The notes under the pieces: generated by a model
What the model saw: only the letters and a program-made list of their open reading frames with translations
Told to the model about the DNA's origin: nothing
Databases searched by the model: none
Assembly: GCA_965140415.1 (NCBI GenBank)
Contig: OZ223209.1
Location: forward strand, 960,001 to 1,024,000
Source: Myxococcota bacterium
GTDB lineage: Bacteria; Myxococcota_A; SURF-8
Direction: 5' to 3'
DNA length: 64,000 bases
Translations under genes and position numbers: made by a program
Shown: positions 1 through 12,732 of the stretch, in pieces
Position numbering within the stretch: position 1 is the stretch's first letter
How the letters are laid out: every line of letters starts with the position of its first letter

Positions 1-1
1 A

Positions 2-1081
2 TTCGATGTCGAGTGCGATAAATACCTGATGCGCGCCACCGGTCAGGTTATGAAGTTCAAAGGCTTTATGGCGGTGTATACCGAACAGAAAGACGAGAGC
101 AAAAGCGAAAGCGATTCGGATGTCATGCTGCCGGATCTCAAAGAAGGCGAAACGCTCAAGGTGCTCGGCTTGAATCCCAAGCAGAACTTCACGCAGCCGC
201 CGCCCCGCTTTACCGAGGCCATGCTGGTAAAAGAACTGGAAGAGCGCGGCATCGGTCGTCCTAGTACGTACGCGTCGATTCTTTCGACGATTCAAGACAA
301 GAATTACGTCTCCAAAACCAAAGGACGGCTGAGCCCCAGTGAATTGGGCGAGATGGTTACGGATCTGTTGCAGGAAAACTTCCCGCGCATCATGGACGCA
401 AAGTTCACCGCCGAAATGGAAGAACAGCTCGACGAAGTCGAAGAAGGCAAGATGCCCTGGCTTAAAGTCTTGAGCACCTTCTACGGTCCGTTCTCCGAAC
501 TGGTGGAAAAAGCCAAAGAGAACATGCGCAACCTCAAGCGCGAAGAAAAACCGACCGGCATCGAATGTCCCAAATGCAAATCCGAGCTGGTCATCAAGTG
601 GGGGCGCAACGGTTCGTTCATCGGTTGTTCGGCCTATCCCAACTGCGATTTCACCAGCGAATACGTGCGCGGCGAGGATGGCTCCATCAATCTCGTGACC
701 GACAAGCGCACGGATGAAGTCTGTGAAAAATGCGGCGGCGGCATGGTCATCAAAAACGGACGCTTCGGTTCGTTTTTGGCTTGCGAAAACTATCCGAGTT
801 GTCGCAACACCAAGCCGGTCAAGGTCGGGATGAAATGCCCGGAGCAGGGCTGCAACGGCGATATCATCGAAAAACGTACTCGCAAGGGCAAGCTGTTCTT
901 CGGTTGCGATCAATATCCGAACTGCAAGTTCGCCTCCTGGGATCGTCCCCGCCCGGAAGCCTGTCCCGCCTGCGGACATAGCTACATGGTGGAGAAAAAC
1001 GTGGCCAGCGGCATGAACCTGCGTTGCCCCTCCTGCGGCCATACCAAGGAAGTCGAAGAACATGACAACGCAGCAAGCTAA
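2..1081 (+). CDS. topA: DNA topoisomerase I, C-terminal part (gene starts before the window)
   Basis: Frame open from base 2; TQPPPRFTEA, GIGRPSTYA and FTAEMEEQLD motifs; C-terminal C4 Zn-ribbon repeats (CPKC...FIGCSAYPNC); precedes trmFO. Confidence 0.97.
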   Translation, partial: FDVECDKYLMRATGQVMKFKGFMAVYTEQKDESKSESDSDVMLPDLKEGETLKVLGLNPKQNFTQPPPRFTEAMLVKELEERGIGRPSTYASILSTIQDKNYVSKTKGRLSPSELGEMVTDLLQENFPRIMDAKFTAEMEEQLDEVEEGKMPWLKVLSTFYGPFSELVEKAKENMRNLKREEKPTGIECPKCKSELVIKWGRNGSFIGCSAYPNCDFTSEYVRGEDGSINLVTDKRTDEVCEKCGGGMVIKNGRFGSFLACENYPSCRNTKPVKVGMKCPEQGCNGDIIEKRTRKGKLFFGCDQYPNCKFASWDRPRPEACPACGHSYMVEKNVASGMNLRCPSCGHTKEVEEHDNAAS

Positions 1082-2444
1082 CCCGGACGTCGTAGTCGTC
1101 GGCGCGGGATTGGCCGGTTGCGAAGCGGCGCTGCAACTGGCCGGGCGCGGGCATCGCGTGCGCTTGTACGAACAGAAACCGGCGGCGCGCAGTGAAGCCT
1201 CGGCCTCGAATCTGTTTGCCGAACTGGTGTGCAGCAATTCCTTTCGCGCCAAAACCCCGGAAAATGCGGTCGGGATGCTCAAAGAGGAAATGGAGCGTCT
1301 CGGCTCCTTTTTCATGGCGGCAGCTCGTCAAAGCGAAATTCCCGCCGGTGGCGCCTTGGCGGTGGACCGGGAGCGTTTCAGCGCATGGCTGACGGGCCGG
1401 GTTCGAAACCATGCGAATATCGAAGTCGTCGAACAGGAAGTCACCGAGGTTCCCAAGGAAGCGGAGGAAGTGATCCTTGCAACCGGACCGTTGACCTCCG
1501 ATGCCTTTGCCGAACAGGTGGCGGCCTTGACCAACCGCGAGCATCTGCACTTTTACGACGCCATCGCCCCGATCGTCGAGGCGGACTCCATCGATCTGAA
1601 CAAGGCGTTCTTTCAATCGCGCTACGATAAAGGCGGCGACGATTACCTGAACTGTCCTTTCAGCAAAGCAGAATACGACGCCTTTGTGGCGGAACTGTTG
1701 CAGGCGGAAAAAGTCGCCCCGCGCGATTTCGAAAAACCTAAATATTTCGAAGGCTGCCTGCCGGTAGAAGTGCTGGCGGAGCGTGGCGAGAAGACCCTGG
1801 CTTTCGGACCGATGAAACCGGTGGGTCTGCTCGATCCGCATACCGGCAAAATGCCTTACGCCGTAATTCAGCTTCGCGCCGAAAACGCCAATAAAAGCGC
1901 GTATAGTCTGGTCGGTTTTCAGACGCGCATGAAGCACGCCGAGCAGCAGCGCGTCTTCCGCATGATTCCGGGCTTGGAACATGCGGTGTTCCAGCGTCTG
2001 GGCAGCGTGCATCGCAACACCTTTATCAATTCAACCCTGCTGGTGGATCGTCACATCCGCCTGCGTCGGGATCCGCGCATCAGTTTCGCCGGACAGCTTT
2101 CCGGCGTGGAAGGTTATGTGGAAAGCGCCGCCAGCGGTCTGGCCGTGGCGCTGTTCACCGACAGTCGCCTGCGGCGGCAGCCGATTCCGCCGATGCCATT
2201 GGAAACCATGATCGGCGCGCTGATGGCTTATCTGGTCCGAATGGACGAGCACTTCCAGCCTTCCAACGTTACTCACGGCATGCTGCCTGCTTTGCAGGGA
2301 AAGAAACTGCGCAAGCGTGACCGCAAGCTGGCGTATGCCGAGCGGGCGCGGGAAAAGCTGACCGAGTGGATCGTGCACAATCGCGTGGCGCTATTGACTC
2401 CGCGTCAAGAGGAAGCGACCGGGAGCGAGGAGCATGGCGCGTAA
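1062..2444 (+). CDS. trmFO: FADH2/methylene-THF-dependent tRNA (uracil-54) methyltransferase TrmFO (Gid)
   Basis: VVGAGLAGCEAA FAD motif, ELVCSNSF, YFEGCLPVE, GSVHRNTF, AGQLSGVEGYVES; usual topA-trmFO order. Confidence 0.96.
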   Translation: MTTQQANPDVVVVGAGLAGCEAALQLAGRGHRVRLYEQKPAARSEASASNLFAELVCSNSFRAKTPENAVGMLKEEMERLGSFFMAAARQSEIPAGGALAVDRERFSAWLTGRVRNHANIEVVEQEVTEVPKEAEEVILATGPLTSDAFAEQVAALTNREHLHFYDAIAPIVEADSIDLNKAFFQSRYDKGGDDYLNCPFSKAEYDAFVAELLQAEKVAPRDFEKPKYFEGCLPVEVLAERGEKTLAFGPMKPVGLLDPHTGKMPYAVIQLRAENANKSAYSLVGFQTRMKHAEQQRVFRMIPGLEHAVFQRLGSVHRNTFINSTLLVDRHIRLRRDPRISFAGQLSGVEGYVESAASGLAVALFTDSRLRRQPIPPMPLETMIGALMAYLVRMDEHFQPSNVTHGMLPALQGKKLRKRDRKLAYAERAREKLTEWIVHNRVALLTPRQEEATGSEEHGA

Positions 2445-2727
2445 GTCCATCGTCACCGAAGCCGCCAAAAAACCGGTGCGCCGCATCGGTTGGCGGCATA
2501 TTCTCTTGTATCTGATTCTGTTGGCGGTGCTATTGGGTTATATCTGGTGGAATCGCGTCTCCGAAGAACTGTACACCGTGCCTGCGCCTGCTGCCATTCC
2601 CGCACCACCCAAGCAAACAACCACCTTTCGCGTTGCGCCGCCTGCTCCGGCAAAACCGGCCTCGGATTCGACAACAGAAAAAAACCAACCTCAAGGCTCT
2701 GACACTACAACGCCTATCGCAGAGTGA
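2434..2727 (+). CDS. Small single-pass membrane protein with Pro/Ala/Thr-rich tail
   Basis: RBS GAGGAG, overlaps trmFO end, one hydrophobic helix after a basic N-terminus. Confidence 0.6.
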   Translation: MARKSIVTEAAKKPVRRIGWRHILLYLILLAVLLGYIWWNRVSEELYTVPAPAAIPAPPKQTTTFRVAPPAPAKPASDSTTEKNQPQGSDTTTPIAE

Positions 2728-2728
2728 A

Positions 2729-3628
2729 TCAATGTAGCTGAGAATCGTCGTCGGTGGTGTTGACGCGCCCGGCGTTGATGGGATCGGTTTCAGAGGAATC
2801 GGTAGCTGTGCGCTTCCGTTTTTCGTTGACCGGTTCCGATGGCTGCTCCACTTGCTTGGCAGCGGTCTTCTTTTTGGGAGTGACGTTGCGTTTTGGAATG
2901 GTGCTCTGTTGCAGCACCGAAAGCAGGTGATTGATGAATCCCGGCGAAAAGCGCCGCGACCTGCGCAACAGCTTGATATCCTGAATCGAAATGCTGGGTA
3001 AAATCGCCATAACCAGCCGGGGCGGCGTATCGGGATTGTTGACCAGCGCCTTTTTGACTTCGTAGCGTGTGAACCAGCGCGGATTGTTGAACACCTCGCG
3101 CAGTACGTCGGGATGATTGGGCCGCCTGGCGCATATCTTGATGACGTCGCGTTCCAATAGGCGCGGATGGCGCAGCAGGTTGTGAATGACGGCGGGGTCC
3201 GGGTCCACCAGCAGTTTTTCGATTAACAGCGGGTCCGCTTTACGGGCCATCCACTTTCGCTCGCCCAGCGTCACATCCTGCAAATCCTGATGGGCATACA
3301 GTTTCGCCTGGCGTTTGGCTTTGATGGGAATCGGCGCCAGCCATTCGGCAGCCAGCATCAGTTTTTTGCGGTCGGCGATTTCGAAAATGCCGGACAGCCG
3401 CCGCCCCAGTTGGCGCTTGACCTCTGTAAAGTCACTGAGCGCCTCCAGCAGATCCAGGCAGTCGCGGTCCTTGTTCAAAGCGCGCCGATACAGCAAATCC
3501 AGTACATGCGCAATTTCCAGATCGCTGAAACGCGCCAGGTCACTGATGACACGCCGGGTTTTGAATTCGCGTTGTGGCAGCGAACTGACGCGGTCGACAA
3601 TGGCGGTCAGAATCTGGGCGTATTCCAT
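2729..3628 (-). CDS. Hypothetical helical-repeat (LRV/HEAT-like) protein
   Basis: 299-aa ORF with repeated L..DPD..V..NL..HP / ALVNNPDTP units. Confidence 0.7.
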   Translation of the reverse strand: MEYAQILTAIVDRVSSLPQREFKTRRVISDLARFSDLEIAHVLDLLYRRALNKDRDCLDLLEALSDFTEVKRQLGRRLSGIFEIADRKKLMLAAEWLAPIPIKAKRQAKLYAHQDLQDVTLGERKWMARKADPLLIEKLLVDPDPAVIHNLLRHPRLLERDVIKICARRPNHPDVLREVFNNPRWFTRYEVKKALVNNPDTPPRLVMAILPSISIQDIKLLRRSRRFSPGFINHLLSVLQQSTIPKRNVTPKKKTAAKQVEQPSEPVNEKRKRTATDSSETDPINAGRVNTTDDDSQLH

Positions 3629-3743
3629 TGAATATTTCCGAGGTTATTCAGATGGAGATGAATATGCGCAGGCTGCGCCGAACCTGATGTATGGCAAAAA
3701 AGAAAGGATTGGTATTCGAACCCAAACAAGGTTGTCTAAAAGG

Positions 3744-4148
3744 TTACCAGCTACCGTGTGAGCCGTGTGAACCGTGTGAACCATGTGAACCATGGGAGCC
3801 ATGGGAAGAGTGCGAACTATGAGAACCATGAGAACCATGGGAACCATGGGAGCCATGCGAGCCGTGCGAGGAATGCGAACCGTGGGAACAGTGTGCGGCC
3901 TGCTCGGTGCCGTCAAGCCCCGGGGCATCGGCGCTGCCATTCAGGAAATCCTGATCCATGCCGCCGTCGAAGCCGTCGTGCTGATCCATGCCGTGATTCT
4001 CTTCCGCTTCCGCCCCTAGCGATTGACCCAGAAGCAGCAGCGTCGTCGATGCGGTCAACGCCTGCTTCTTCGTGATCTTCCCTTCCTCGCTGAGGAGAAA
4101 CTGAGCCACTTTTCTTTTGATTCTGGGGACCTTTTTATTGGTGCTCAC
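3744..4148 (-). CDS. His-Xaa-Ser repeat protein (HxsA-like putative RiPP precursor)
   Basis: GTG start with AGGAGG RBS; basic/hydrophobic leader, acidic spacer, 16 HxS triplets ending in Trp. Confidence 0.85.
   Translation of the reverse strand: MSTNKKVPRIKRKVAQFLLSEEGKITKKQALTASTTLLLLGQSLGAEAEENHGMDQHDGFDGGMDQDFLNGSADAPGLDGTEQAAHCSHGSHSSHGSHGSHGSHGSHGSHSSHSSHGSHGSHGSHGSHGSHGSW
3750..3893 (-). repeat. 16 x 9-bp tandem repeat encoding HCS/HGS/HSS
   Basis: Counted directly; copies differ mostly at synonymous positions. Confidence 0.95.
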
Positions 4149-4276
4149 AGAACATTCCTCCTAGAAGAGGCCGATCTCTCGCCTCGGTACTGACGACCCA
4201 ATCTGCCGCATTCATAGACGATAAACACAATGCACGGCAACCTGCGAAGCGCCTCTCCAGACCCTCGTCTCCAATC

Positions 4277-4304
4277 ATTCTATCAATTTGACATCAGAAG
4301 TCAA
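4277..4304 (-). promoter_or_regulatory. Sigma70-type promoter for the HxS precursor
   Basis: Minus strand TTGACT-N16-TAGAAT with TG extended -10; overlaps TTGAC-N7-GTCAA palindrome (4288-4304). Confidence 0.6.
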
Positions 4305-4473
4305 GGACTAATATCCGTAAGTCAGATCGATTTGCACGGGAACTTTGTATGAAGAATTCAAAGGTTGGCTGCTTGCGGCCTTCCGTCAACTACTGAAGCC
4401 ATTCCAATGAAATCTTCGTCATTATGTCAGACATCGATGTCAGAATAGGTGTCGCGAATTGACTGCGACAGGA

Positions 4474-4511
4474 GCGCAATAATTACGCGAGGTGTTGCGC
4501 AGTAATTGCGC
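4474..4511. promoter_or_regulatory. Tandem palindromic enhancer-like sites
   Basis: GCGCAataatTACGC (4474-4488) and GCGCAgtaatTGCGC (4497-4511), about 100-130 bp upstream of a sigma54-like promoter. Confidence 0.55.
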
Positions 4512-4604
4512 GACACCCGATGGAATTTGGAAAATTACTATATTTTGCATACTAAAAAAAGAATTGGTAACCATTCTTATATGCTTTCTCGGTTGAATAC
4601 AATC

Positions 4605-4620
4605 TGGCATGAGTCGTGCT
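4605..4620 (+). promoter_or_regulatory. Sigma54 (-24/-12) promoter
   Basis: TGGCATGAGTCGTGCT, exact GG-N10-GC spacing, 58 bp before the ATG at 4678. Confidence 0.65.
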
Positions 4621-4677
4621 TATATATGCGGCGTTTGGCGCGAGGGGGTTCACCGACATCACAGGAGTAAAAACAAC

Positions 4678-5112
4678 ATGACGCAAGAAAAGAAACGAAA
4701 CATCCTAAGACGCTTGACCCTGACCCTGTTTGTTGTAAGCCTTCTCTTGGCCGGGTACACCATGGTGCAAGGCAACCGCGAGATCGAGGTTCCAAACGAG
4801 ATGCTCTTGCCGATGCTCAGCCAGAAGCAGTCCGGTTCGGTAACGGAAAGCATTTCACGAAACTTGAGTGAAGCTCGTGAGTTAAGCGAGAATTTCATTC
4901 TGGAAAGCGATAGCGGACGGCTGGAAAGCATTGAAACCGAATTCGACAAGCGTATGGGTGTGATTGCCAGCGAACTGGATCGACTCAGTGATGTGGATGA
5001 TCCGGGTTTGGAAGTGATTGTTGCCCAGTTGATGAGGTTGAGCGTGACCTATCGTAACGATGTCAAGACGGCCTTCACCAAGCATCGCCAGGATTTGGGT
5101 TTGGATAGCTGA
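4678..5112 (+). CDS. Membrane-anchored protein with helical (four-helix-bundle sensor-like) extracytoplasmic region
   Basis: RBS AGGAG before ATG 4678; one TM helix then amphipathic helices. Confidence 0.6.
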   Translation: MTQEKKRNILRRLTLTLFVVSLLLAGYTMVQGNREIEVPNEMLLPMLSQKQSGSVTESISRNLSEARELSENFILESDSGRLESIETEFDKRMGVIASELDRLSDVDDPGLEVIVAQLMRLSVTYRNDVKTAFTKHRQDLGLDS

Positions 5113-5180
5113 TGCGTCTAATGGTTATTATTCATTAGGAAACTCAATAGGTTACCGAAAAGACTAGATTGAACTTTCAG

Positions 5181-5210
5181 AAAGCGGGCAAATAAGCCCG
5201 CTTTTTTCTT
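5181..5210 (+). terminator. Intrinsic terminator
   Basis: AAAGCGGGC-loop-GCCCGCTTT followed by T run. Confidence 0.75.
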
Positions 5211-5528
5211 GTCAAGTATTCAAATCCGGGAAAGAGAGACGTTTTGTCCTGTTTGGATAGATTTTCCTGGATTGTAATGTTCCCCCTTTCCGCGAGATTC
5301 CGATGGAGCATTGGCTCCCGCCATGCTCCAACGGAAACCGGTATATATCGGTTCTTAATCATTTTCAGCCACCGATTCCAAGAATGTGTGCCATAGTCTT
5401 ACGCGATCGAAGATCGTGGAAGGCTGTGTGTCTTCAATAAGTTACACACGGCCCTCCGGAATTTCCATTCCGTGAGACCATGGCACATCGTGATTACTCG
5501 ATGGACAGAAATGAGTAATACCTGCTCT

Positions 5529-5566
5529 AAACAAAATCCCCCGGTCAATGTCATCAACCGGGGGAT
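5529..5566 (-). terminator. Intrinsic terminator
   Basis: 10-bp stem ATCCCCCGGT/ACCGGGGGAT then T-rich run on minus strand, 25 bp past stop at 5591. Confidence 0.75.
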
Positions 5567-5590
5567 GTGTAAACTGCATGTAAAGAAGCT

Positions 5591-8035
5591 TTACTTGCTA
5601 CTGTAGTATTCGTCCGCTCCCAGATCGAAACCGCTGTCATGACGTCGACGGTCGCCGTCGATATCGAAATAATGATAGAAACCGCTGTAATAAGCTTCCG
5701 GATCGATTCCGGCGTCCACCGCGCCATGCTCGTCGTCGGGCAGCGTGTAGCCGTTTTTGGCAAAACTGCTGGTCGCCAGATCGAAAGTGTTATCTCCAGA
5801 TGCGACGCAAGCCGTGAAGTTACAGGAGTTCAAATCGTCCGCTCCGATGCAGTTCCGGTTGTAGCCTTCCCATTGCAGGGTGTTGCATTGTGAATTGGTT
5901 CCCGTGAGTGCGTAAATGTTGTTGTTGAACAGGGTCACGTTCCCCGGAGAATGGAAGCTGACCCCCATCGAATCAACGCTGTCTCCCGTGTACACGATAT
6001 TGTTGATCATGGTGAGTGTGGTGCCGTAACTGCCAAGTTGCTGAGAATTGCTGACTCCCATGCTGTAGTAGCGACCGTCACCACCGAAAATGGTGTTGTT
6101 CACCAGCATGGTCGTAGCAGGTGAGGGAATGGCCAGCGCGATGACATCGCCACCGCTATTGGAGACATCCCAGCCGTTTCCTCCTTTGAAATAGTTGCCA
6201 ACAATGACCGACTCCACAAAGAAGCCGCCTTGCAGAATCGTTACGGCGGTGTAGGCATAGCCATTGCCGCCGTCGATCAGGTTATTGACCATGTCCAGTT
6301 TGCCGTGTACGCCATCATACCCATCGATTGCAATGCAGGTAATGTTGCCACTGGAATTCTCGCCACATTCAATGCTGTTGCGGCGCAACTCCAGCGACGA
6401 TCCGGCTTCGGCGTTGACCACTCTGAAAGCGGGGTCGTTCGACGAGGAATTCGTGCAGCCGTAAATGAGGTTATTCCACAAGATCAGTTTACCGTTATTG
6501 ACCACTTTCATCAGGGTAATGTCGCTGTGAACATCCTGCTCGTAGGCTCCGCATTGCAGCGTCAAGCCATCCAGTTTAGCCGTTTGGCCATCGACGGTCA
6601 GACCGACATCGCTATCCGCCGGGCGGTTGATTTGCGTCACGTGCGCTGCGTGGTTGCGGGTCCAGCCTGTGGCTTCGTAACCGCCGAAGATATCTGCTTC
6701 CAACGTCACAGCTTCCGTATATTCGCCTTCAGCGGCAATTACCTGCCTGTCGGTGTCGCGTGCCATGGCAATGGCTGAAGCCAGTGTTTCCTTTGGTTCA
6801 GAGGGAGTGCCGGGATTGAGATCGTCGCCGCCGTTGGTATTGACAAAGACGAAGAGCGACGCATTGCTGGCGGCAAGCAGATCACCGGAGTCGCAATCGT
6901 TATCCAGGCCGTCGTCTGGAATTTCGCTTGCGTCGGGGCGCACGAAGGGATTGGCATCGTTGCAGTCGGTGCCGGGAGTCACGCTGCGGCTGACGGTGCT
7001 GTCTCCCCAGTTGTCGAGATCCTCGTCTTTCATGCAGGCGTGAACCGCTTCGTTCGGGGCCGCGCCCGGATTGGTGTAGTAGTTGTTGTCATCGCAGTCG
7101 ATGGAAAGGCCCTGCGTGCCGCTGACGGCGTAACCATCGCCATCGTTATCGCCGGTGGTCGCATCGCCGAATTTGCCATCGCAGTTTTCATCCACGGCAT
7201 CCAGATCGTTGTCTTCGCGGGAAGGATTGATAAAGAAGTTGTTGTCGTTGCAGTCGTTGCCGCCTTCGCTCTGATCTTGATAGCCATCGCAATCGTCGTC
7301 CAGTCCCTCGTCGATGGTGCCATCGCAGTTGTTGTCCAGGCCATCGAAAGATTCAGTCAGGATGGAAGGATTCGCCAGGTTGCTGTCGTCGTTGCAGTCG
7401 CCCTGGTTTTCCGTGTAGCCGTCGTCATCGTCGTCCACATCCATATCACCGATCACGATTGCAGTGGCTACGCAGCTATCCGGCTGTTCTTCTTCATCCG
7501 CATCGCTGTCACCGTCTGTCATATCGCCATCGGGCATATCGCCGTCTGGCGTATCTCCATCAGGCATATCACCGTCTGGCGTATCGCCATCAGGCGTATC
7601 GCCATCGGCAGAATCGCCATCAGTGGAATCGCCATCAGTGGAATCGCCGTCAGTTGTATCGCCGTCGGTTGTATCGCCGTCGGTTGTATCGCCGTCAGTA
7701 GAATCGCCGTCAGTGGAATCGCCATCGGTTGTATCGCCGTCGGTTGTATCGCCGTCGGTTGTATCGCCATCAGCTATATCGCCGTCTGAAGAATCGCCGT
7801 CCGAGGAAGCTGGATAGGCGCAAAATGAGCCAGCGTCGACAGTCAGGCAGGTTTCGCCGCTTTCGCAATCGTCGTCGCTGCTGCAAGGACGATTTGTGTC
7901 GATCACCCAATCCACATCGCCGTCAGTGGTATCGCCGTCGCTGTCGCCGGGATCGTCGGAACTACTCGATTCGCAGGCACCGAGAATGAATGTTGCCGTA
8001 ATAAGTATACACAGTAAATAGAATTTCCGTTTCAT
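5591..8035 (-). CDS. Surface lipoprotein: DGD linker, MopE-like putative metal-binding repeats, right-handed beta-helix
   Basis: Lipobox LGAC; repeated DxDGDGY...DCND...NP...DGLDNxCD units; GGDDLNPGT..P..TL..AI beta-helix start; C-terminal DIDG..R...DLGADEY. Confidence 0.85.
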   Translation of the reverse strand: MKRKFYLLCILITATFILGACESSSSDDPGDSDGDTTDGDVDWVIDTNRPCSSDDDCESGETCLTVDAGSFCAYPASSDGDSSDGDIADGDTTDGDTTDGDTTDGDSTDGDSTDGDTTDGDTTDGDTTDGDSTDGDSTDGDSADGDTPDGDTPDGDMPDGDTPDGDMPDGDMTDGDSDADEEEQPDSCVATAIVIGDMDVDDDDDGYTENQGDCNDDSNLANPSILTESFDGLDNNCDGTIDEGLDDDCDGYQDQSEGGNDCNDNNFFINPSREDNDLDAVDENCDGKFGDATTGDNDGDGYAVSGTQGLSIDCDDNNYYTNPGAAPNEAVHACMKDEDLDNWGDSTVSRSVTPGTDCNDANPFVRPDASEIPDDGLDNDCDSGDLLAASNASLFVFVNTNGGDDLNPGTPSEPKETLASAIAMARDTDRQVIAAEGEYTEAVTLEADIFGGYEATGWTRNHAAHVTQINRPADSDVGLTVDGQTAKLDGLTLQCGAYEQDVHSDITLMKVVNNGKLILWNNLIYGCTNSSSNDPAFRVVNAEAGSSLELRRNSIECGENSSGNITCIAIDGYDGVHGKLDMVNNLIDGGNGYAYTAVTILQGGFFVESVIVGNYFKGGNGWDVSNSGGDVIALAIPSPATTMLVNNTIFGGDGRYYSMGVSNSQQLGSYGTTLTMINNIVYTGDSVDSMGVSFHSPGNVTLFNNNIYALTGTNSQCNTLQWEGYNRNCIGADDLNSCNFTACVASGDNTFDLATSSFAKNGYTLPDDEHGAVDAGIDPEAYYSGFYHYFDIDGDRRRHDSGFDLGADEYYSSK
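7508..7807 (-). repeat. 20 x 15-bp tandem repeat encoding xxDGD
   Basis: Counted from translation (SSDGD, TTDGD, STDGD, TPDGD, MPDGD). Confidence 0.95.
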
Positions 8036-8365
8036 TAGTCCTCCACACGTATTGGTTCACTTCCCCTTGTCTCTTCATTTGGTGGGTATCATACCGTAAA
8101 TTCAGAACTATTTCGATAAAAAACTCAAATGGGCAGATCGGAGGGCCGGGGCAACTTGTAAGCATTTACGAGTTTATTGTGTGGCAGCGTCTCACCACAT
8201 TCGAAGGTTGAAGGGAGGCTGTGTGCATTTTTTGGGGAAATGTCACACGATCTCCCGGAATTTATATTCTATTTGACCATGTCACATGGCGATTTAACGA
8301 TGGATAAATTGAGGTATGCCTGCTTTCAAATCGATCAAATTTCGTCGGCCCCATTCCGACCGAAG

Positions 8366-8408
8366 ATGACCGGTAAATGACCGGTAAATGACCAGTAAAT
8401 GACCGTAA
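8366..8408. repeat. Four tandem 11-bp repeats (ATGACCGGTAA)
   Basis: Two exact copies, one with a substitution, one with a 1-bp deletion; inverted partial copy at 8508-8521. Confidence 0.85.
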
Positions 8409-8739
8409 ACGAGCAGTTGAAATTACCTGAATTTATGCGGCAAAACGGCAAACAGGAATATGGGTCGCGTATTGGCTGCTTTGTAATGCAATATGCGAAA
8501 ATCAAGTGGTCATTTACGGTCGGGTGATGCGTTTTAGTGTGATTCTAGTGTGCATTTTGTGTGGTTTTAGTACGTTTGGCACCGCGTAGTGGCGCAGTTG
8601 TCGGAATAATCGGTTTTTTACCCTGAGTCAAAGTGCTATTTCTGACATCTCCGTCGGGTGCTTTTTTCCGATATCGCTTCCAAGTTGAAAATATGCTAAA
8701 CTACATTCGTGAAACATTCTTGAACTTCAGGAGGCCGTC

Positions 8740-9813
8740 ATGTGTAGCGTGAAAACATCGTTTACTCTTTCCCCCGTCGGTTGGATGCGAACGCCTTACG
8801 ATCCATCTTTTACGCCGCATCAGCCGCCCGCGCGCGAAATCGAAGCGGGGGCGTTCCGGTTAGAAGTCAATCCGGAATTTGCAGAGGCGCTGCATCGATT
8901 GAATGAATGCCGCTATCTCGCGCTGCTTTCCTATTTCGATAAAAATCAAGGCGACGTGGCGCTTCGCGTTAAGCCGCCTTGGCTGGACGGCGTGGAAGTC
9001 GGTTTGTTCGCCAGTCGTTCTCCCAAACGGCCCAATCCGATTGGATTGCACGTTGTGCGTCTATTGAAAATCGAGGGCAACACCCTGTTCACCGGGCCGA
9101 TCGATTTATACGACAGCACCCCGATATTGGACATCAAACCCTACTTCGTCACCTTGGATGCCAAAGCCGATGCCGGTGACGGCTGGATGGACAGCGTCGA
9201 AGGTAAGGCACATTTATTGGAACATATGCTCGGAATTCCACACGAACACGGCGAGCATGGACACGATCATGCGCACGGGCACGAGCATCAGGCCGGGCAC
9301 CAGGCGCACGATCACGGCGAGCACAGCCACCGCGCAAGTTCGCAAGTCGATGCGCTCGATGGCGATCACGCTCACCAGCATGAAAGCGGCGCGGATTCCG
9401 AACACGATCATCATCATCACCATCATAGTCACACTCACAGCCATAGCCACGCGCAGGATCATATCCACGAGCACGGCGAGGACGAAGGCCACAGCCACAG
9501 CCATCACCACGCGCATTCTTCGGATCATGGCCATCAGCACGGCGTGACGCATGAACATCTGCACGAGCACGAGCATCGGCATGGAGATGAATCGCACACG
9601 CACGTTCATCATCACCATCATCATCATGATTCGGCTCCCGATCATCACGATCACGAGCACAGCCACACGCACGAACATCCGCACGCGCATGCAGGCGAAC
9701 ACGCTCATTCACACGGAGACAATCCGGCGGGAGAGCATTCTCACGCGCACACGCATCAACACGCCCACCCACACGCGGAAGGGCATCACCACGATGCGGA
9801 TTCCAAGGAGTAG
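8740..9813 (+). CDS. TrmO/YaeB(TsaA)-family SAM-binding domain fused to a long His-rich tail
   Basis: GLFASRSPKRPNPIGL and TPILDIKPY motifs; residues 168-357 hold about 76 His; RBS AGGAGG. Confidence 0.88.
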   Translation: MCSVKTSFTLSPVGWMRTPYDPSFTPHQPPAREIEAGAFRLEVNPEFAEALHRLNECRYLALLSYFDKNQGDVALRVKPPWLDGVEVGLFASRSPKRPNPIGLHVVRLLKIEGNTLFTGPIDLYDSTPILDIKPYFVTLDAKADAGDGWMDSVEGKAHLLEHMLGIPHEHGEHGHDHAHGHEHQAGHQAHDHGEHSHRASSQVDALDGDHAHQHESGADSEHDHHHHHHSHTHSHSHAQDHIHEHGEDEGHSHSHHHAHSSDHGHQHGVTHEHLHEHEHRHGDESHTHVHHHHHHHDSAPDHHDHEHSHTHEHPHAHAGEHAHSHGDNPAGEHSHAHTHQHAHPHAEGHHHDADSKE

Positions 9814-9892
9814 GATACAATATCTGACCCGACCTACGGATGGATATAAAATGAAGCAGCAGCAGTAGGTTGGCCAAATATCTGACCCGACA
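9810..9892. repeat. Inverted pair of GTAG-type REP-like elements
   Basis: 9810-9837 (minus) and 9865-9892 (plus), resembling GTAGGTYGGG...CCCGACA. Confidence 0.7.
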
Positions 9893-9897
9893 CCAAT

Positions 9898-10791
9898 CTA
9901 CGCCTGGCTGGTAAGAGGGAAAACGAATGGGCGATCGTCCATCGGAAAGAATCCTTGTACGAAAAGTTCGGATTGGGTTTCACGCTTGACGAGTAGATCC
10001 GGTGCGTCCATCAAATCAGGGGTGAAATCGTAGATAATCTTTTTAACACCGGGGCCTCCGATAAATGGGAACAGTTTCGTTATCGGTGGAATGGTTTCCC
10101 CGATAACATCGATCAGACGCAATGTGTTTCCGCTTGTTCGGAAAATGATCGCTACGCCTAGAGATTCTATAAAATACAAATCGTTGGGGTAAGCTACCGA
10201 GGCGTGAAACATAAGCAGCCAGCTCTGCCGTTGAACGCCGACCAGAGATGACACGGAAGTTCGAGAGACCGCCAACCCGTTTAGCAACTCCCGGTCGTGA
10301 AAGTTCATCAGGTCAAGCTTTGCTGCCTTTTCGGGCGAGACAGTGAAAGGCGGTGCCGCAGATTCGAAAGTATACTGCGGCAGGTTCCGATAACCGAACT
10401 GCTGGTAAAAATCAAACGCGGAGGGATTTGCGAAAAGAAAAAATAACTCGTGTGTATCTCTCCTGTGCTGATGAGCCTTTTTCATCAAGGTTTTAATAAG
10501 ACCTTGCTTGCGATAGTTGGGCAGAGTGGCAACCGTCCCAATCTGGATCGCGTTAACAGGCTTGTTCGCTACGATCAGATTCATTGGAGAGGCGGAAACG
10601 TTTGCTACAACACGATTCTGCTTGAAGAATGAAAATGGCGTATATTCCGTAAACGCATACCCGAGATCGTTCCAGGGTGAAAAATCCAGACCGCCGAAAA
10701 TGTCGGACACAAAGGAATTGAGCGCTTGTCTGGCTTCCGGCTCATGATAATAGGCCTGTCGAAATTCCAAGTCTTTCATAATATCGCTCAT
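9898..10791 (-). CDS. GNAT-family N-acetyltransferase
   Basis: IGTVATLPNYRKQGL acetyl-CoA motif, FLFAN...FYQQFGY; start placed at the ATG after AGGTG (the ORF-track start lies in a terminator). Confidence 0.85.
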   Translation of the reverse strand: MSDIMKDLEFRQAYYHEPEARQALNSFVSDIFGGLDFSPWNDLGYAFTEYTPFSFFKQNRVVANVSASPMNLIVANKPVNAIQIGTVATLPNYRKQGLIKTLMKKAHQHRRDTHELFFLFANPSAFDFYQQFGYRNLPQYTFESAAPPFTVSPEKAAKLDLMNFHDRELLNGLAVSRTSVSSLVGVQRQSWLLMFHASVAYPNDLYFIESLGVAIIFRTSGNTLRLIDVIGETIPPITKLFPFIGGPGVKKIIYDFTPDLMDAPDLLVKRETQSELFVQGFFPMDDRPFVFPLTSQA

Positions 10792-10825
10792 CATACAACA
10801 CCTATAACCAAACGACAGCACCCGT

Positions 10826-10863
10826 AAAAACGGCTCGGGCAAAGCCATGTTCACCCGAGCCGT
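10826..10863 (-). terminator. Intrinsic terminator after acyl-CoA dehydrogenase
   Basis: ACGGCTCGGG/CCCGAGCCGT stem plus T run on minus strand. Confidence 0.7.
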
Positions 10864-10923
10864 ATATCTTTGTCCCCCCGCCTTAATAACGGGGGAAAAC
10901 GATATTACAAACGTATCCGGAAA

Positions 10924-12732
10924 TTAATCCAGGCGGTATTCCACGCGCTCGATCAGATGCTGAGCGATCAGATCTTTCAAGCCCATCGTGTTCAAACCGT
11001 AGGGTTTCATCATGCGATGCATGGCCTTCAGGTTCTTGGCGAATTCTTCCTCGCTGTCTCCGGCGACATTGGCGCAGATCTGGCGCACGCGCTCCTGGAT
11101 GCTGCGGAATTTTTCGTAAACCAGCACCTGGGTCAGCATGATCGGCACCTTGCAGGCTTCCTCGCCCTTGTCGGCGATCATCTTCATGGTGCGCAGATAC
11201 GCACTCTCGGCACCGTAGACATCCATCATCATGTCGGCAAGGTTCTCCAACAGGATCTGGTTCTTCATCAGGTATTTGGGATCAGCCATGGCTTTTTGAG
11301 CCGGAACGCCAAGACCGAAGACGCCCCACTGGCGAATCAATTCGACCACCGTGGCTTCGCGACCCAGTACGCCCTCGGCGTCGTCGCGGTTGATCTGGTC
11401 GTCTTTGATCTTGCTCATCAGGGTCGTGATCGGCGTCATCAGATCGATTTCCCCGCCCATCGCGCGGCGCATCAACGTGCCGGGCATGATCATGCGGTTG
11501 ACTTCGTTGGTGCCTTCGAAGATGCGGTTGATGCGAGCATCGCGGTAGTGACCGCAAACCGGGTATTCTTCGATAAAGCCGTAACCGCCGTGCAACTGCA
11601 CACCGTCATCGACAACGCGCGCCAGCGCTTCGGAGCCGTACACCTTGAGAATCGAGGCTTCGATGGCGTATTCTTCGATACAGGCGACTTTCTTCATCGG
11701 ATAGGACGCATCGTCTACCGGAACGTCGATCTGCTCGATGGCGTCATCGATCAGACCCGCAGTGCGATAGGCCATCGATTCGGTGGTGTAAATTTCGGTC
11801 GCCATGTCGGCCAGCTTGCGGCGGCTCATCTGGAAACTGTCGATGGAACGGCCAAACTGCTTGCGCTCACTGGTATAAACCAGCGACTCTTTGAGCACCT
11901 GTTTGCACACGCCCAACGAACCCAGACCCAGTTTCAAGCGGCCAATGTTCAGAATGTTCAGCGCCACTTTGTGGCCTTTGCCGATGTCACCCAGCAGGTT
12001 TTCGACCGGGATCTTGGCGTCGTCCATGATCAACTGACGGGTCGAGCTGCCTTTGATGCCCATCTTGTGCTCTTCCGCACCGGTGCTCACGCCCGGAGCG
12101 TCGGCATCGACGATGAAGGCGCTGAAATGCTCGCCATCAACCTTGGCGTAAACGGTATAGACGTTGGCGAAACCGGCGTTGGTGATGAACTGCTTGGTGC
12201 CGTTCAAGATCCAGTATTTACCGTCTTCACTTTTGACGGCCTTGGTTTTGGCGCCCAGCGCGTCGGAGCCGAAACCTTCTTCGGTCAGCGCATACGCACC
12301 CAGAAATTCACCGGTGGCCAGTTTCGTCAGGTATTTTTCCTTTTGCTCGTGATTGCCGAAATAGACGATCGGCAGGGTGCCGATGCCGGTCTGGCACATC
12401 ATCGAGGTGGTGAAGCTACCCAGTTTGCTGGAATGTTCGGCTACCAGCATCGCGGCTTTCAAACCCTGCTCCAACCCGCCGTACTCTTCCGGTACTTCGA
12501 CCATCAGCAGGCCCAATTCACCAGCTTTTTTCAATAGTTCCGTGTTCAGCTGGATTTTCGTTTCCGACGCTTCCAATTCCTCTTTACGAGGATAGACTTC
12601 GCCCATCACGAAATCGTGAGCAGTTTTGGCGAACATCAGGTTGTCTTCGTCGAAATCTTCCATCGTGAAGATGTCGGCGGCATTCGTCGCTTCGAGCAGG
12701 AACGTCCCGCCCTTTTTCAATGTCTCGGCCAT
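10924..12732 (-). CDS. Acyl-CoA dehydrogenase (long FadE/AcdA type)
   Basis: YALTE..GSDA, LNGTKQFITN, KMGIKGSST, QLHGGYGFIEEY, RIFEGTNEVNR; RBS GGAGG. Confidence 0.95.
   Translation of the reverse strand: MAETLKKGGTFLLEATNAADIFTMEDFDEDNLMFAKTAHDFVMGEVYPRKEELEASETKIQLNTELLKKAGELGLLMVEVPEEYGGLEQGLKAAMLVAEHSSKLGSFTTSMMCQTGIGTLPIVYFGNHEQKEKYLTKLATGEFLGAYALTEEGFGSDALGAKTKAVKSEDGKYWILNGTKQFITNAGFANVYTVYAKVDGEHFSAFIVDADAPGVSTGAEEHKMGIKGSSTRQLIMDDAKIPVENLLGDIGKGHKVALNILNIGRLKLGLGSLGVCKQVLKESLVYTSERKQFGRSIDSFQMSRRKLADMATEIYTTESMAYRTAGLIDDAIEQIDVPVDDASYPMKKVACIEEYAIEASILKVYGSEALARVVDDGVQLHGGYGFIEEYPVCGHYRDARINRIFEGTNEVNRMIMPGTLMRRAMGGEIDLMTPITTLMSKIKDDQINRDDAEGVLGREATVVELIRQWGVFGLGVPAQKAMADPKYLMKNQILLENLADMMMDVYGAESAYLRTMKMIADKGEEACKVPIMLTQVLVYEKFRSIQERVRQICANVAGDSEEEFAKNLKAMHRMMKPYGLNTMGLKDLIAQHLIERVEYRLD

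Follow-up and report, generated by a model that had tools for sequence, protein, structure and literature searches.

Our results indicate that the gene at positions 3744 to 4148 of this stretch, which encodes a run of His-Xaa-Ser (HxS) triplets, is a genuine member of the curated HxsA4 family and a stray part of a scattered system rather than a true orphan. On the strength of comparative sequence evidence, we consider it quite probable that its product is a precursor of the HxsA4 class, one of two ancient paralogs, that would be matured in trans by Hxs enzymes encoded at two other loci. The whole stretch of 64,000 nucleotides, hereafter the window, corresponds to positions 960001-1024000 of a single-contig, 5.98-Mb Myxococcota MAG that is 93.7% complete (genome label G000). 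An earlier note on the window had described the gene as an orphan with its own promoter and had offered two explanations for its product: that it is a RiPP substrate on which distant maturases act in trans, or that it is a metal-binding polypeptide acting alone. Genomic evidence (HxsA4 membership, the presence of HxsB and HxsD, and their co-occurrence) supports the first of these, with the modification itself being a prediction. The gene and its closest features are given below in window coordinates.

3744..4148, minus strand: hxsA4 coding sequence, 134 aa, GTG start and TAA stop (open reading frame list and NF038313 profile match)
4065..4148, minus strand: basic leader KKVPRIKRKVAQFLLSEEGKITKK, residues 1-28, with 9 Lys plus Arg, conserved in the family alignment
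4011..4064, minus strand: hydrophobic, signal-peptide-like stretch QALTASTTLLLLGQSLGA, residues 29-46 (Kyte-Doolittle)
3894..4010, minus strand: acidic spacer, residues 47-85, with 11 Asp plus Glu, 0 Lys plus Arg, pI 4.05
3750..3893, minus strand: 16 tandem His-Xaa-Ser triplets, residues 86-133, uninterrupted from H86
3744..3749, minus strand: C-terminal Trp134 and stop codon, the Trp being invariant in 17 of 17 aligned members
4157..4162, minus strand: Shine-Dalgarno sequence AGGAGG, 8 nt ahead of the GTG (read from the sequence)
4277..4304, minus strand: sigma-70-like candidate promoter, TTGACT-16-TAGAAT with TG, 10 of 12 positions (motif scan)
2729..3628, minus strand: 299-aa gene of no known family, 115 bp downstream of hxsA4 on the same strand

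The open reading frame and its translation agree with the earlier description of a 134-aa gene with a leader, an acidic spacer containing GMDQ twice (residues 52-55 and 62-65), and 16 HxS triplets followed by Trp. From the N-terminus, the product consists of a leader with VAQFLLSEEGKITKKQAL, then TTLLLLGQSLGA, and then the acidic spacer, the HxS array, and W134. Residues 1-28 are the presumed recognition sequence for maturases. The stretch that follows (residues 29-46) contains the hydrophobicity maximum of the protein, at residues 30-44 (mean 1.25 in a 15-residue Kyte-Doolittle window), and may serve in export; it is kept across the order and is missing from some distant members (G038, G017, and G036). 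The sequence and length of the spacer are weakly conserved in relatives. The array begins with HCS and is otherwise made up of 11 HGS and 4 HSS triplets. The protein has one Cys, and its mature part contains 18 His and 11 Asp plus Glu, with Lys and Arg absent after residue 46 and a calculated charge of about -9.6 at pH 7 and +3.1 at pH 5.5. A Pfam search of the protein returned nothing above threshold, neither a peptidoglycan-binding domain nor any other, its single hit being a sub-threshold Collagen match.

The array does not look like a product of replication slippage, which is also what the earlier note had concluded from the prevalence of synonymous differences among the 9-bp units. Because 13 of the 16 units are distinct, no exact internal repeat exceeds 17 nt, and the differences from the unit consensus are mostly synonymous (22 synonymous and 4 non-synonymous among 48 codons), the units are not slippage copies. 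On the plus strand, two open reading frames over hxsA4 (3758-4075, 105 aa; 3792-4019, 75 aa) are by-products of the repeat, and the same strand gives a sub-cutoff match of 28.7 bits to the HxsA4 model.

Membership in the HxsA4 family was clear. The protein scored 68.2 bits (E 9e-19; cut-off 55) against NCBIfam NF038313, and a whole-genome search with this model gave 69.3 bits for the same frame. Since NF038313 is already curated, the window gene belongs to a known family. Against NF038309 (HxsA3) the score of 39.5 bits was below the cut-off of 65; the leaders are similar, with positions 2-47 of that profile matching residues 7-52 of the protein. The score against NF038296 (HxsA2), 13.8 bits, was also below its cut-off (48). 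The canonical models include TIGR03979, which we take to be the HxsA accession, along with TIGR03978 (HxsB), TIGR03977 (HxsC), and TIGR03976 (HxsD). In the literature that we searched, the names HxsA4 and HxsC4 had no occurrences, and among publications mentioning "His-Xaa-Ser" none treats the HxsA4 class, as judged from listings and from passages of PMC9062424 and PMC13128918. What is new in this analysis is genomic: unlinked precursors are normal in the order, the enzyme genes are dispersed, and other radical-SAM proteins stand in for HxsC.

The maturation genes lie well outside of the window. Of the 94 matches to Radical_SAM (PF04055) in the genome, none falls within positions 960001-1024000, which confirms the earlier report that no radical-SAM gene occurs in these 64 kb. 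The earlier note had proposed a genome-wide HMM search for Hxs-type or SPASM radical-SAM genes and for paralogs sharing the leader, and both searches were productive: HxsB was found 2.6 Mb from the window gene, and a single paralog, likewise of 134 aa, was found beside it. The relevant features are as follows.

3.58 Mb, locus L021: HxsB, 493 aa, with SPASM (TIGR03978, 559 bits; cut-off 370)
L021, directly after hxsB: second HxsA4, 134 aa, 16 HxS triplets and Trp (NF038313, 63.8 bits)
L021, after the HxsA4 paralog: 317-aa CxxxCxxC radical-SAM protein
L086 6041-10276, equal to 4.692-4.696 Mb of G000: hxsD locus
4.69 Mb, L086: HxsD-domain protein, 249 aa (TIGR03976, 64.8-67.4 bits; cut-off 50)
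L086: 330-aa radical-SAM protein, best NCBIfam match HxsC at 98.1 bits, below the 267.9 cut-off

At L021, hxsB, the HxsA4 paralog, and the 317-aa radical-SAM gene (rSAM317) follow one another on one strand. At L086, the order is HxsD (249 aa), a 372-aa open reading frame, the 330-aa radical-SAM gene (rSAM330), and a 388-aa membrane-like open reading frame. A six-frame scan of the genome found two open reading frames that combine a run of at least 4 HxS with an EEGKIT leader, namely the window gene and the hxsB-linked paralog, which are 54% identical over 104 aligned residues. The description of the gene as an orphan accordingly holds within the window, where there is no maturase, and fails for the genome, which has HxsB, HxsD, and further radical-SAM genes elsewhere. 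As to the hxsD locus itself, the HxsD protein carries a Lys/Thr/Ala-rich N-terminal extension, and the product of the 388-aa open reading frame looks like a multi-pass membrane protein of no family. The rSAM330 and 388-aa genes adjoin hxsD in G001 as well, and rSAM330 adjoins hxsD in G006 and G015.

The usual third enzyme appears to have been exchanged. No protein in the genome was over the cut-off for HxsC (TIGR03977; best 110.1 bits against 267.9) or for HxsC4 (NF038332; best 168.9 bits against 500), the partner named for HxsA4, and the enzyme set therefore differs from the one that has been studied experimentally. The 317-aa protein is not among the 34 matches listed for HxsC4 at E<=0.001. 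The place of HxsC is taken by different radical-SAM proteins, that is, the 317-aa protein and the HxsC-like 330-aa protein. A separate cluster of three adjacent radical-SAM genes (345, 426, and 359 aa), at 2054764-2057619 (L087, L089, L012, and L013), supplies the best HxsC4 matches of the genome, all sub-cutoff (168.9 and 133.1 bits against 500), and the six-frame scan found no open reading frame with an HxS run there.

Genes of this system occur together across related bacteria. We compared 41 genomes, consisting of G000 and 40 relatives, and found HxsB in 19 of them (18 over cut-off, with the copy in G003 cut by a contig end). HxsD was found in the same 19 genomes (18 over cut-off), a 19-of-19 co-occurrence that overstates the support because the genomes are kin and not independent samples. 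HxsA4 was over cut-off in 16 genomes, all of them within the 19, and HxsB is present in every one of the 16 (15 over cut-off, plus the truncated copy in G003). None of the 22 HxsB-negative genomes contained HxsA4 over cut-off. Homologs of the 317-aa radical-SAM protein (E<=1e-15) were found in 13 of the 41 genomes, again all within the 19. Two of the sub-cutoff matches to HxsA4 were inspected. The one in G012 (54.0 bits) is a real 12-unit gene adjoining hxsB, and the one in G040, a genome without HxsB and HxsD, is spurious, reflecting an unrelated repeat in another frame. Further sub-cutoff matches occur in G011, G014, G018, G019, G020, G022, G030, and G035, all of them genomes without HxsB.

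Comparison of the neighborhoods of homologs, another step that the earlier note had suggested, revealed compact operons in genomes of other families and scattered genes in the order to which the window belongs. In G015, contig 42 carries rSAM330, HxsD, HxsB, HxsA4, and rSAM317 as one operon, and HxsD, HxsB, HxsA4, and rSAM317 lie together on contig 96 of G021 and contig 288 of G036. Overall, an HxsA4 copy adjoins hxsB in 7 of the 16 genomes (G000, G001, G004, G015, G021, G023, and G036). Linked and unlinked copies coexist in three (G000, G001, and G004), and the HxsA4 genes are exclusively unlinked in nine (G002, G003, G006, G007, G008, G009, G017, G028, and G038), where "unlinked" in draft assemblies means a different contig, the hxsB contig having no HxsA4 match. 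Within the order of the window, all 10 of 10 genomes have the Hxs system with its genes scattered. For example, G008 has hxsB and rSAM317 at 1.74 Mb, hxsD at 3.14 Mb, and hxsA4 at 4.87 Mb; in G006, all four Hxs genes are at separate places; and in G002 and G003, hxsA4 is on a contig other than that of hxsB and rSAM317. In three genomes, hxsB abuts rSAM317 with no precursor between them, the gaps being 54 bp (G002), 87 bp (G003), and 36 bp (G008). In G007, the unlinked hxsA4 follows hxsD at a distance of about 260 bp, and hxsB is found on a separate contig. Taken together, these arrangements establish unlinked HxsA4 genes as the norm in this Myxococcota order. Contig 220 of G003 (L032 1036-1422 and 1578-1973) carries two tandem unlinked hxsA4 genes with 16 triplets each and a leader of the unlinked type. 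A search for related stretches confirmed at least 30 of 599 candidates, many by the repeat alone, and was not used for any of these counts.

The leader of the precursor is well conserved. Over 40 codons, comparison with 11 relatives gave pN values of 0.077-0.274 and pS values of 0.655-0.881 (9 of these comparisons had reached saturation at synonymous sites), a pattern of codon change indicating that the leader is under purifying selection. The synonymous differences among the repeat units likewise speak for selection on the gene. An alignment of 17 members shows no variation at P8, L18, or E22, in the His and Ser columns, or at the final Trp, and conservation of at least 90% at F17, E21, G23, and I25. 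As their first triplet, 15 of these members have HCS and 2 have HAS. Among 21 genes of the family, two of them cut by masked bases, the number of triplets is 16 in 10 and 17 in 5, with others at 11, 11, 12, and 12. Furthermore, linked and unlinked copies have distinct leader signatures. The unlinked copies of G000, G001, G002, G003, and G004 have (A/G/S)QFLx(S/G)EEGKITKKQALTASTT in common, and this AQFLxSEEG-type leader marks unlinked copies across three genera; in G000, G001, and G004, the signature of the linked copies is M(F/Y)LQGEEG. Since the signatures are consistent across genera, the duplication predates the split of the genera and both copies have been kept.

The leader is also found on proteins outside of the HxsA4 family. 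A first attempt with a word-indexed protein search was too insensitive (1 hit among 4 candidates), and an exhaustive profile search was used instead. With a leader-only profile, this search returned 227 cluster representatives at E<=0.001 among 1.84 billion proteins, most of them 40-200 aa long with the match at the N-terminus. Among the best 150 of the 227, runs of 3 or more HxS are present in 44, shorter ones in 74, and none in 32; these include fragments as well as proteins with Cys-rich or other cores. Given its occurrence on many proteins, the leader would be a widespread recognition module, and its distribution suggests a leader superfamily that is broader than HxsA3 plus HxsA4. Within this collection (P0001-P0150), many small proteins with different cores begin with a leader of the form LPxIKKxIxxFLxSEEGKI(T/S)KK and a hydrophobic stretch; among them are proteins with tails rich in Cys, others with short runs of HxS that finish with Y, and one form of 484 aa that has a run of 18 triplets.

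The nearest upstream open reading frame (4609-5112) is on the opposite strand, and the layout therefore requires a separate promoter for hxsA4. The earlier claim that the gene has its own promoter stands to this extent, but the sole sigma-70-like match near hxsA4 is no commoner than in shuffled sequence (1 found against 1.4 +/- 1.4, not above chance). Downstream, neither a sequence scan nor folding of the intergenic RNA (z = -0.49 for the 3' intergenic fold) revealed an intrinsic terminator, and no terminator-like site was found between hxsA4 and the 299-aa gene, which is possibly co-transcribed with it. The product of the 299-aa gene had no Pfam or NCBIfam match. Its homologs adjoin the unlinked hxsA4 in G001 and G002 (54-55% identity) and are absent from the other five neighborhoods that were fetched (G004, G006, G007, G008, and G028), such that a functional link with hxsA4 is possible and not general. 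Upstream, the locus is preceded by topA, which the start of the window truncates, by trmFO, and by a 97-aa open reading frame on the plus strand. Neither topA and trmFO nor the neighbors of 167 and 814 aa are conserved beside unlinked hxsA4 genes in relatives, the base composition of positions 1-12000 shows no island signature around hxsA4, and a search of sequencing runs found no RNA runs containing the window stretch, which was present in three DNA runs of a single study that may represent the source sample.

Several neighboring genes encode proteins that are themselves rich in His or carry metal-binding motifs. A 357-aa TrmO_N protein (8740-9813, plus strand; domain residues 25-140, 103.5 bits) has a tail of roughly 215 aa in which His is extremely abundant, alongside Asp, Glu, Ser, and Gly, and is a second His-rich product in the area, 4.6 kb from hxsA4. 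In addition, both HxsA4 loci are flanked by genes for large proteins that look secreted and that contain (T/S/P)DGD repeats as well as MopE "putative metal-binding" motifs, identified by motif at the following positions.

Window 5591-8035, minus strand: MopE-motif protein
L021 4956-7085, plus strand: MopE-motif protein
L021 10253-15142, minus strand: MopE-motif protein

A 1629-aa MopE-motif protein upstream of hxsB keeps its position in G001, G002, G004, and G006 (33-47% identity). The 814-aa MopE-motif gene of the window is not conserved beside unlinked hxsA4 copies.

How might the window gene and its distant partners work together? In the maturation that we propose, hxsA4 would have a promoter of its own, and translation would start at the GTG, which follows a strong ribosome-binding site. 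The basic leader (residues 1-28) would be recognized in the cytoplasm by HxsB, the radical-SAM/SPASM enzyme encoded at 3.58 Mb, with the 317-aa radical-SAM protein encoded beside HxsB and the HxsD and HxsC-like 330-aa radical-SAM proteins encoded at 4.69 Mb as putative accessory proteins. Radical chemistry would then modify His or Ser positions of the 16-unit array, after which the N-terminus would be removed and the hydrophobic stretch would carry the product out of the cytoplasm. Because HxsB and HxsD are homologous to components of the E. coli system, we infer this general course of leader-guided radical-SAM modification, N-terminal removal, and export. Given that the two paralogs are 54% identical, it is an assumption that one set of maturases serves both. 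A predicted complex of HxsB with residues 1-60 of the hxsA4 protein (alignments A2 and A1) scored 0.00, which gives no answer either way.

Separation of a precursor from its enzymes is not without precedent. RiPP precursors can lie far from their maturase, as do prochlorosin precursors and ProcM. The likeness lies in precursor genes that are located apart from their one set of enzymes and in several paralogous precursors with a conserved leader; the differences are another enzyme class and chemistry and the presence of only two precursors in the G000 genome. Compared with the NF038313 class itself, the window gene conforms in its score over cut-off, its leader and HxS array, and its co-occurrence with HxsB. 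It departs from the class in its partners, the 317-aa and HxsC-like 330-aa radical-SAM proteins occurring in place of an HxsC4 over cut-off. Adjacency to maturase genes is seen for the linked paralog and not for the window gene.

The best reference for function is the E. coli HXS system (HxsA/B/C/D), which passages of Li et al. (Nat Commun 2026; PMC13128918) describe as a broad antiphage system in which the HxS repeats are each essential. According to these passages, N-terminal processing of HxsA needs HxsB, HxsC, and HxsD each, a modification of +8 Da is located on an SHRSS motif within the final HxS repeat, and the site of action is the periplasm, where the product blocks the entry of phage DNA (PMC13128918). 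[quoted passage not shown] The Myxococcota system resembles that of E. coli, as so described, in having HxsB and HxsD family members and a repeat protein with an N-terminal export-like signal and HxS repeats. Unlike the E. coli HxsA of these passages, the hxsA4 protein is 134 aa long, lacks a peptidoglycan-binding domain, has 16 nearly pure HGS repeats, ends in Trp, and is acidic in its mature part; and whereas the E. coli genes are compact, those described here are at three loci. Transfer of function from E. coli HxsA is weakened by the lack of basic repeats and of a peptidoglycan-binding domain.

Within the maturation in trans that we favor, one sub-case, to which we assign a real but minority chance, is that the same matured product is a periplasmic antiphage effector that blocks the entry of phage DNA. 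Defense systems are usually patchy, compact, and mobile. Against an antiphage role, therefore, stands the finding that all 10 genomes of the order carry the system and have its genes scattered, together with the 99.7% share of Pseudomonadota and the fixed D-B-C-A order given for HXS in passages of PMC13128918. That HxsB and HxsD are true family members speaks for such a role, as do the signal-like stretch in the hxsA4 protein and the antiphage activity of E. coli HXS, with its dependence on each repeat (passages of PMC13128918). On the other hand, the protein has no peptidoglycan-binding domain and no Pfam domain over threshold, and its mature part, without Lys or Arg and with a charge of about -9.6 at pH 7, contrasts with the published model, which in those passages relies on DNA binding by basic repeats. 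Because the mature part is acidic and the peptidoglycan-binding domain is absent, we rate an extracytoplasmic, His-based function that responds to metal or pH about as likely as a DNA-trapping antiphage role.

A more specific version of this idea can be offered tentatively, and as a whole it is more doubtful than probable. The type-4 Hxs system of the order may be, instead of a mobile defense island, a vertically inherited, scattered pathway, made up of hxsB, hxsD, two non-canonical radical-SAM genes, and one or two unlinked precursors. The product of this pathway would be a His-Gly-Ser peptide of 16 units and fixed length, modified at multiple sites, exported, and ending in Trp, that would act as a metal- or pH-responsive component of the envelope and not as a DNA trap. 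As part of the same tentative picture, the near-constant number of 16-17 units from family to family would stem from a defined architecture, either folded or cross-linked.

An alternative to maturation in trans is that the His-rich product stands alone and unmodified, binding Ni, Zn, or Cu once exported and working independently of Hxs enzymes. Its 18 His, one Cys, and acidic spacer would suit this function, as would the lack of a maturase within 64 kb and the proximity of the TrmO_N protein with the His-rich tail (8740-9813) and the MopE-motif protein (5591-8035). Yet these nearby metal-motif genes are not conserved beside unlinked copies in relatives, and HxsA4 was over cut-off in 0 of the 22 genomes without HxsB and HxsD. 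Moreover, a simple metal binder would have no need of the leader, which is the best-conserved part outside of the repeat and is shared with operon-encoded copies, and the unlinked hxsA4 of G007 lies beside hxsD. We therefore regard this alternative as unlikely. It is very improbable that the window gene is a redundant, silent or decaying duplicate of the hxsB-linked precursor: a linked paralog exists and no RNA run with the window stretch was found, but the frame is intact behind a strong ribosome-binding site, the leader is under purifying selection, its signature recurs in unlinked copies of other genera, and in G002, G003, G006, and G008 the unlinked gene or genes are the only HxsA4 found.

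The Hxs system acquired an experimental function only in 2026, when, as the passages of that work present it, antiphage defense was demonstrated in E. coli for one class of HxsA that is almost confined to Pseudomonadota. Our findings indicate that HxsA4, a class that is catalogued and unstudied, behaves differently in Myxococcota, where precursors are routinely unlinked, enzyme genes are scattered, HxsC is replaced by other radical-SAM proteins, and the mature peptide is acidic with no wall anchor. Genome mining that relies on finding a precursor next to its enzyme would, in 9 of the 16 genomes with the family, overlook every HxsA4 gene. More generally, the HxsA4 genes of Myxococcota provide a natural test of whether the chemistry of HxS repeats serves purposes beyond phage defense.
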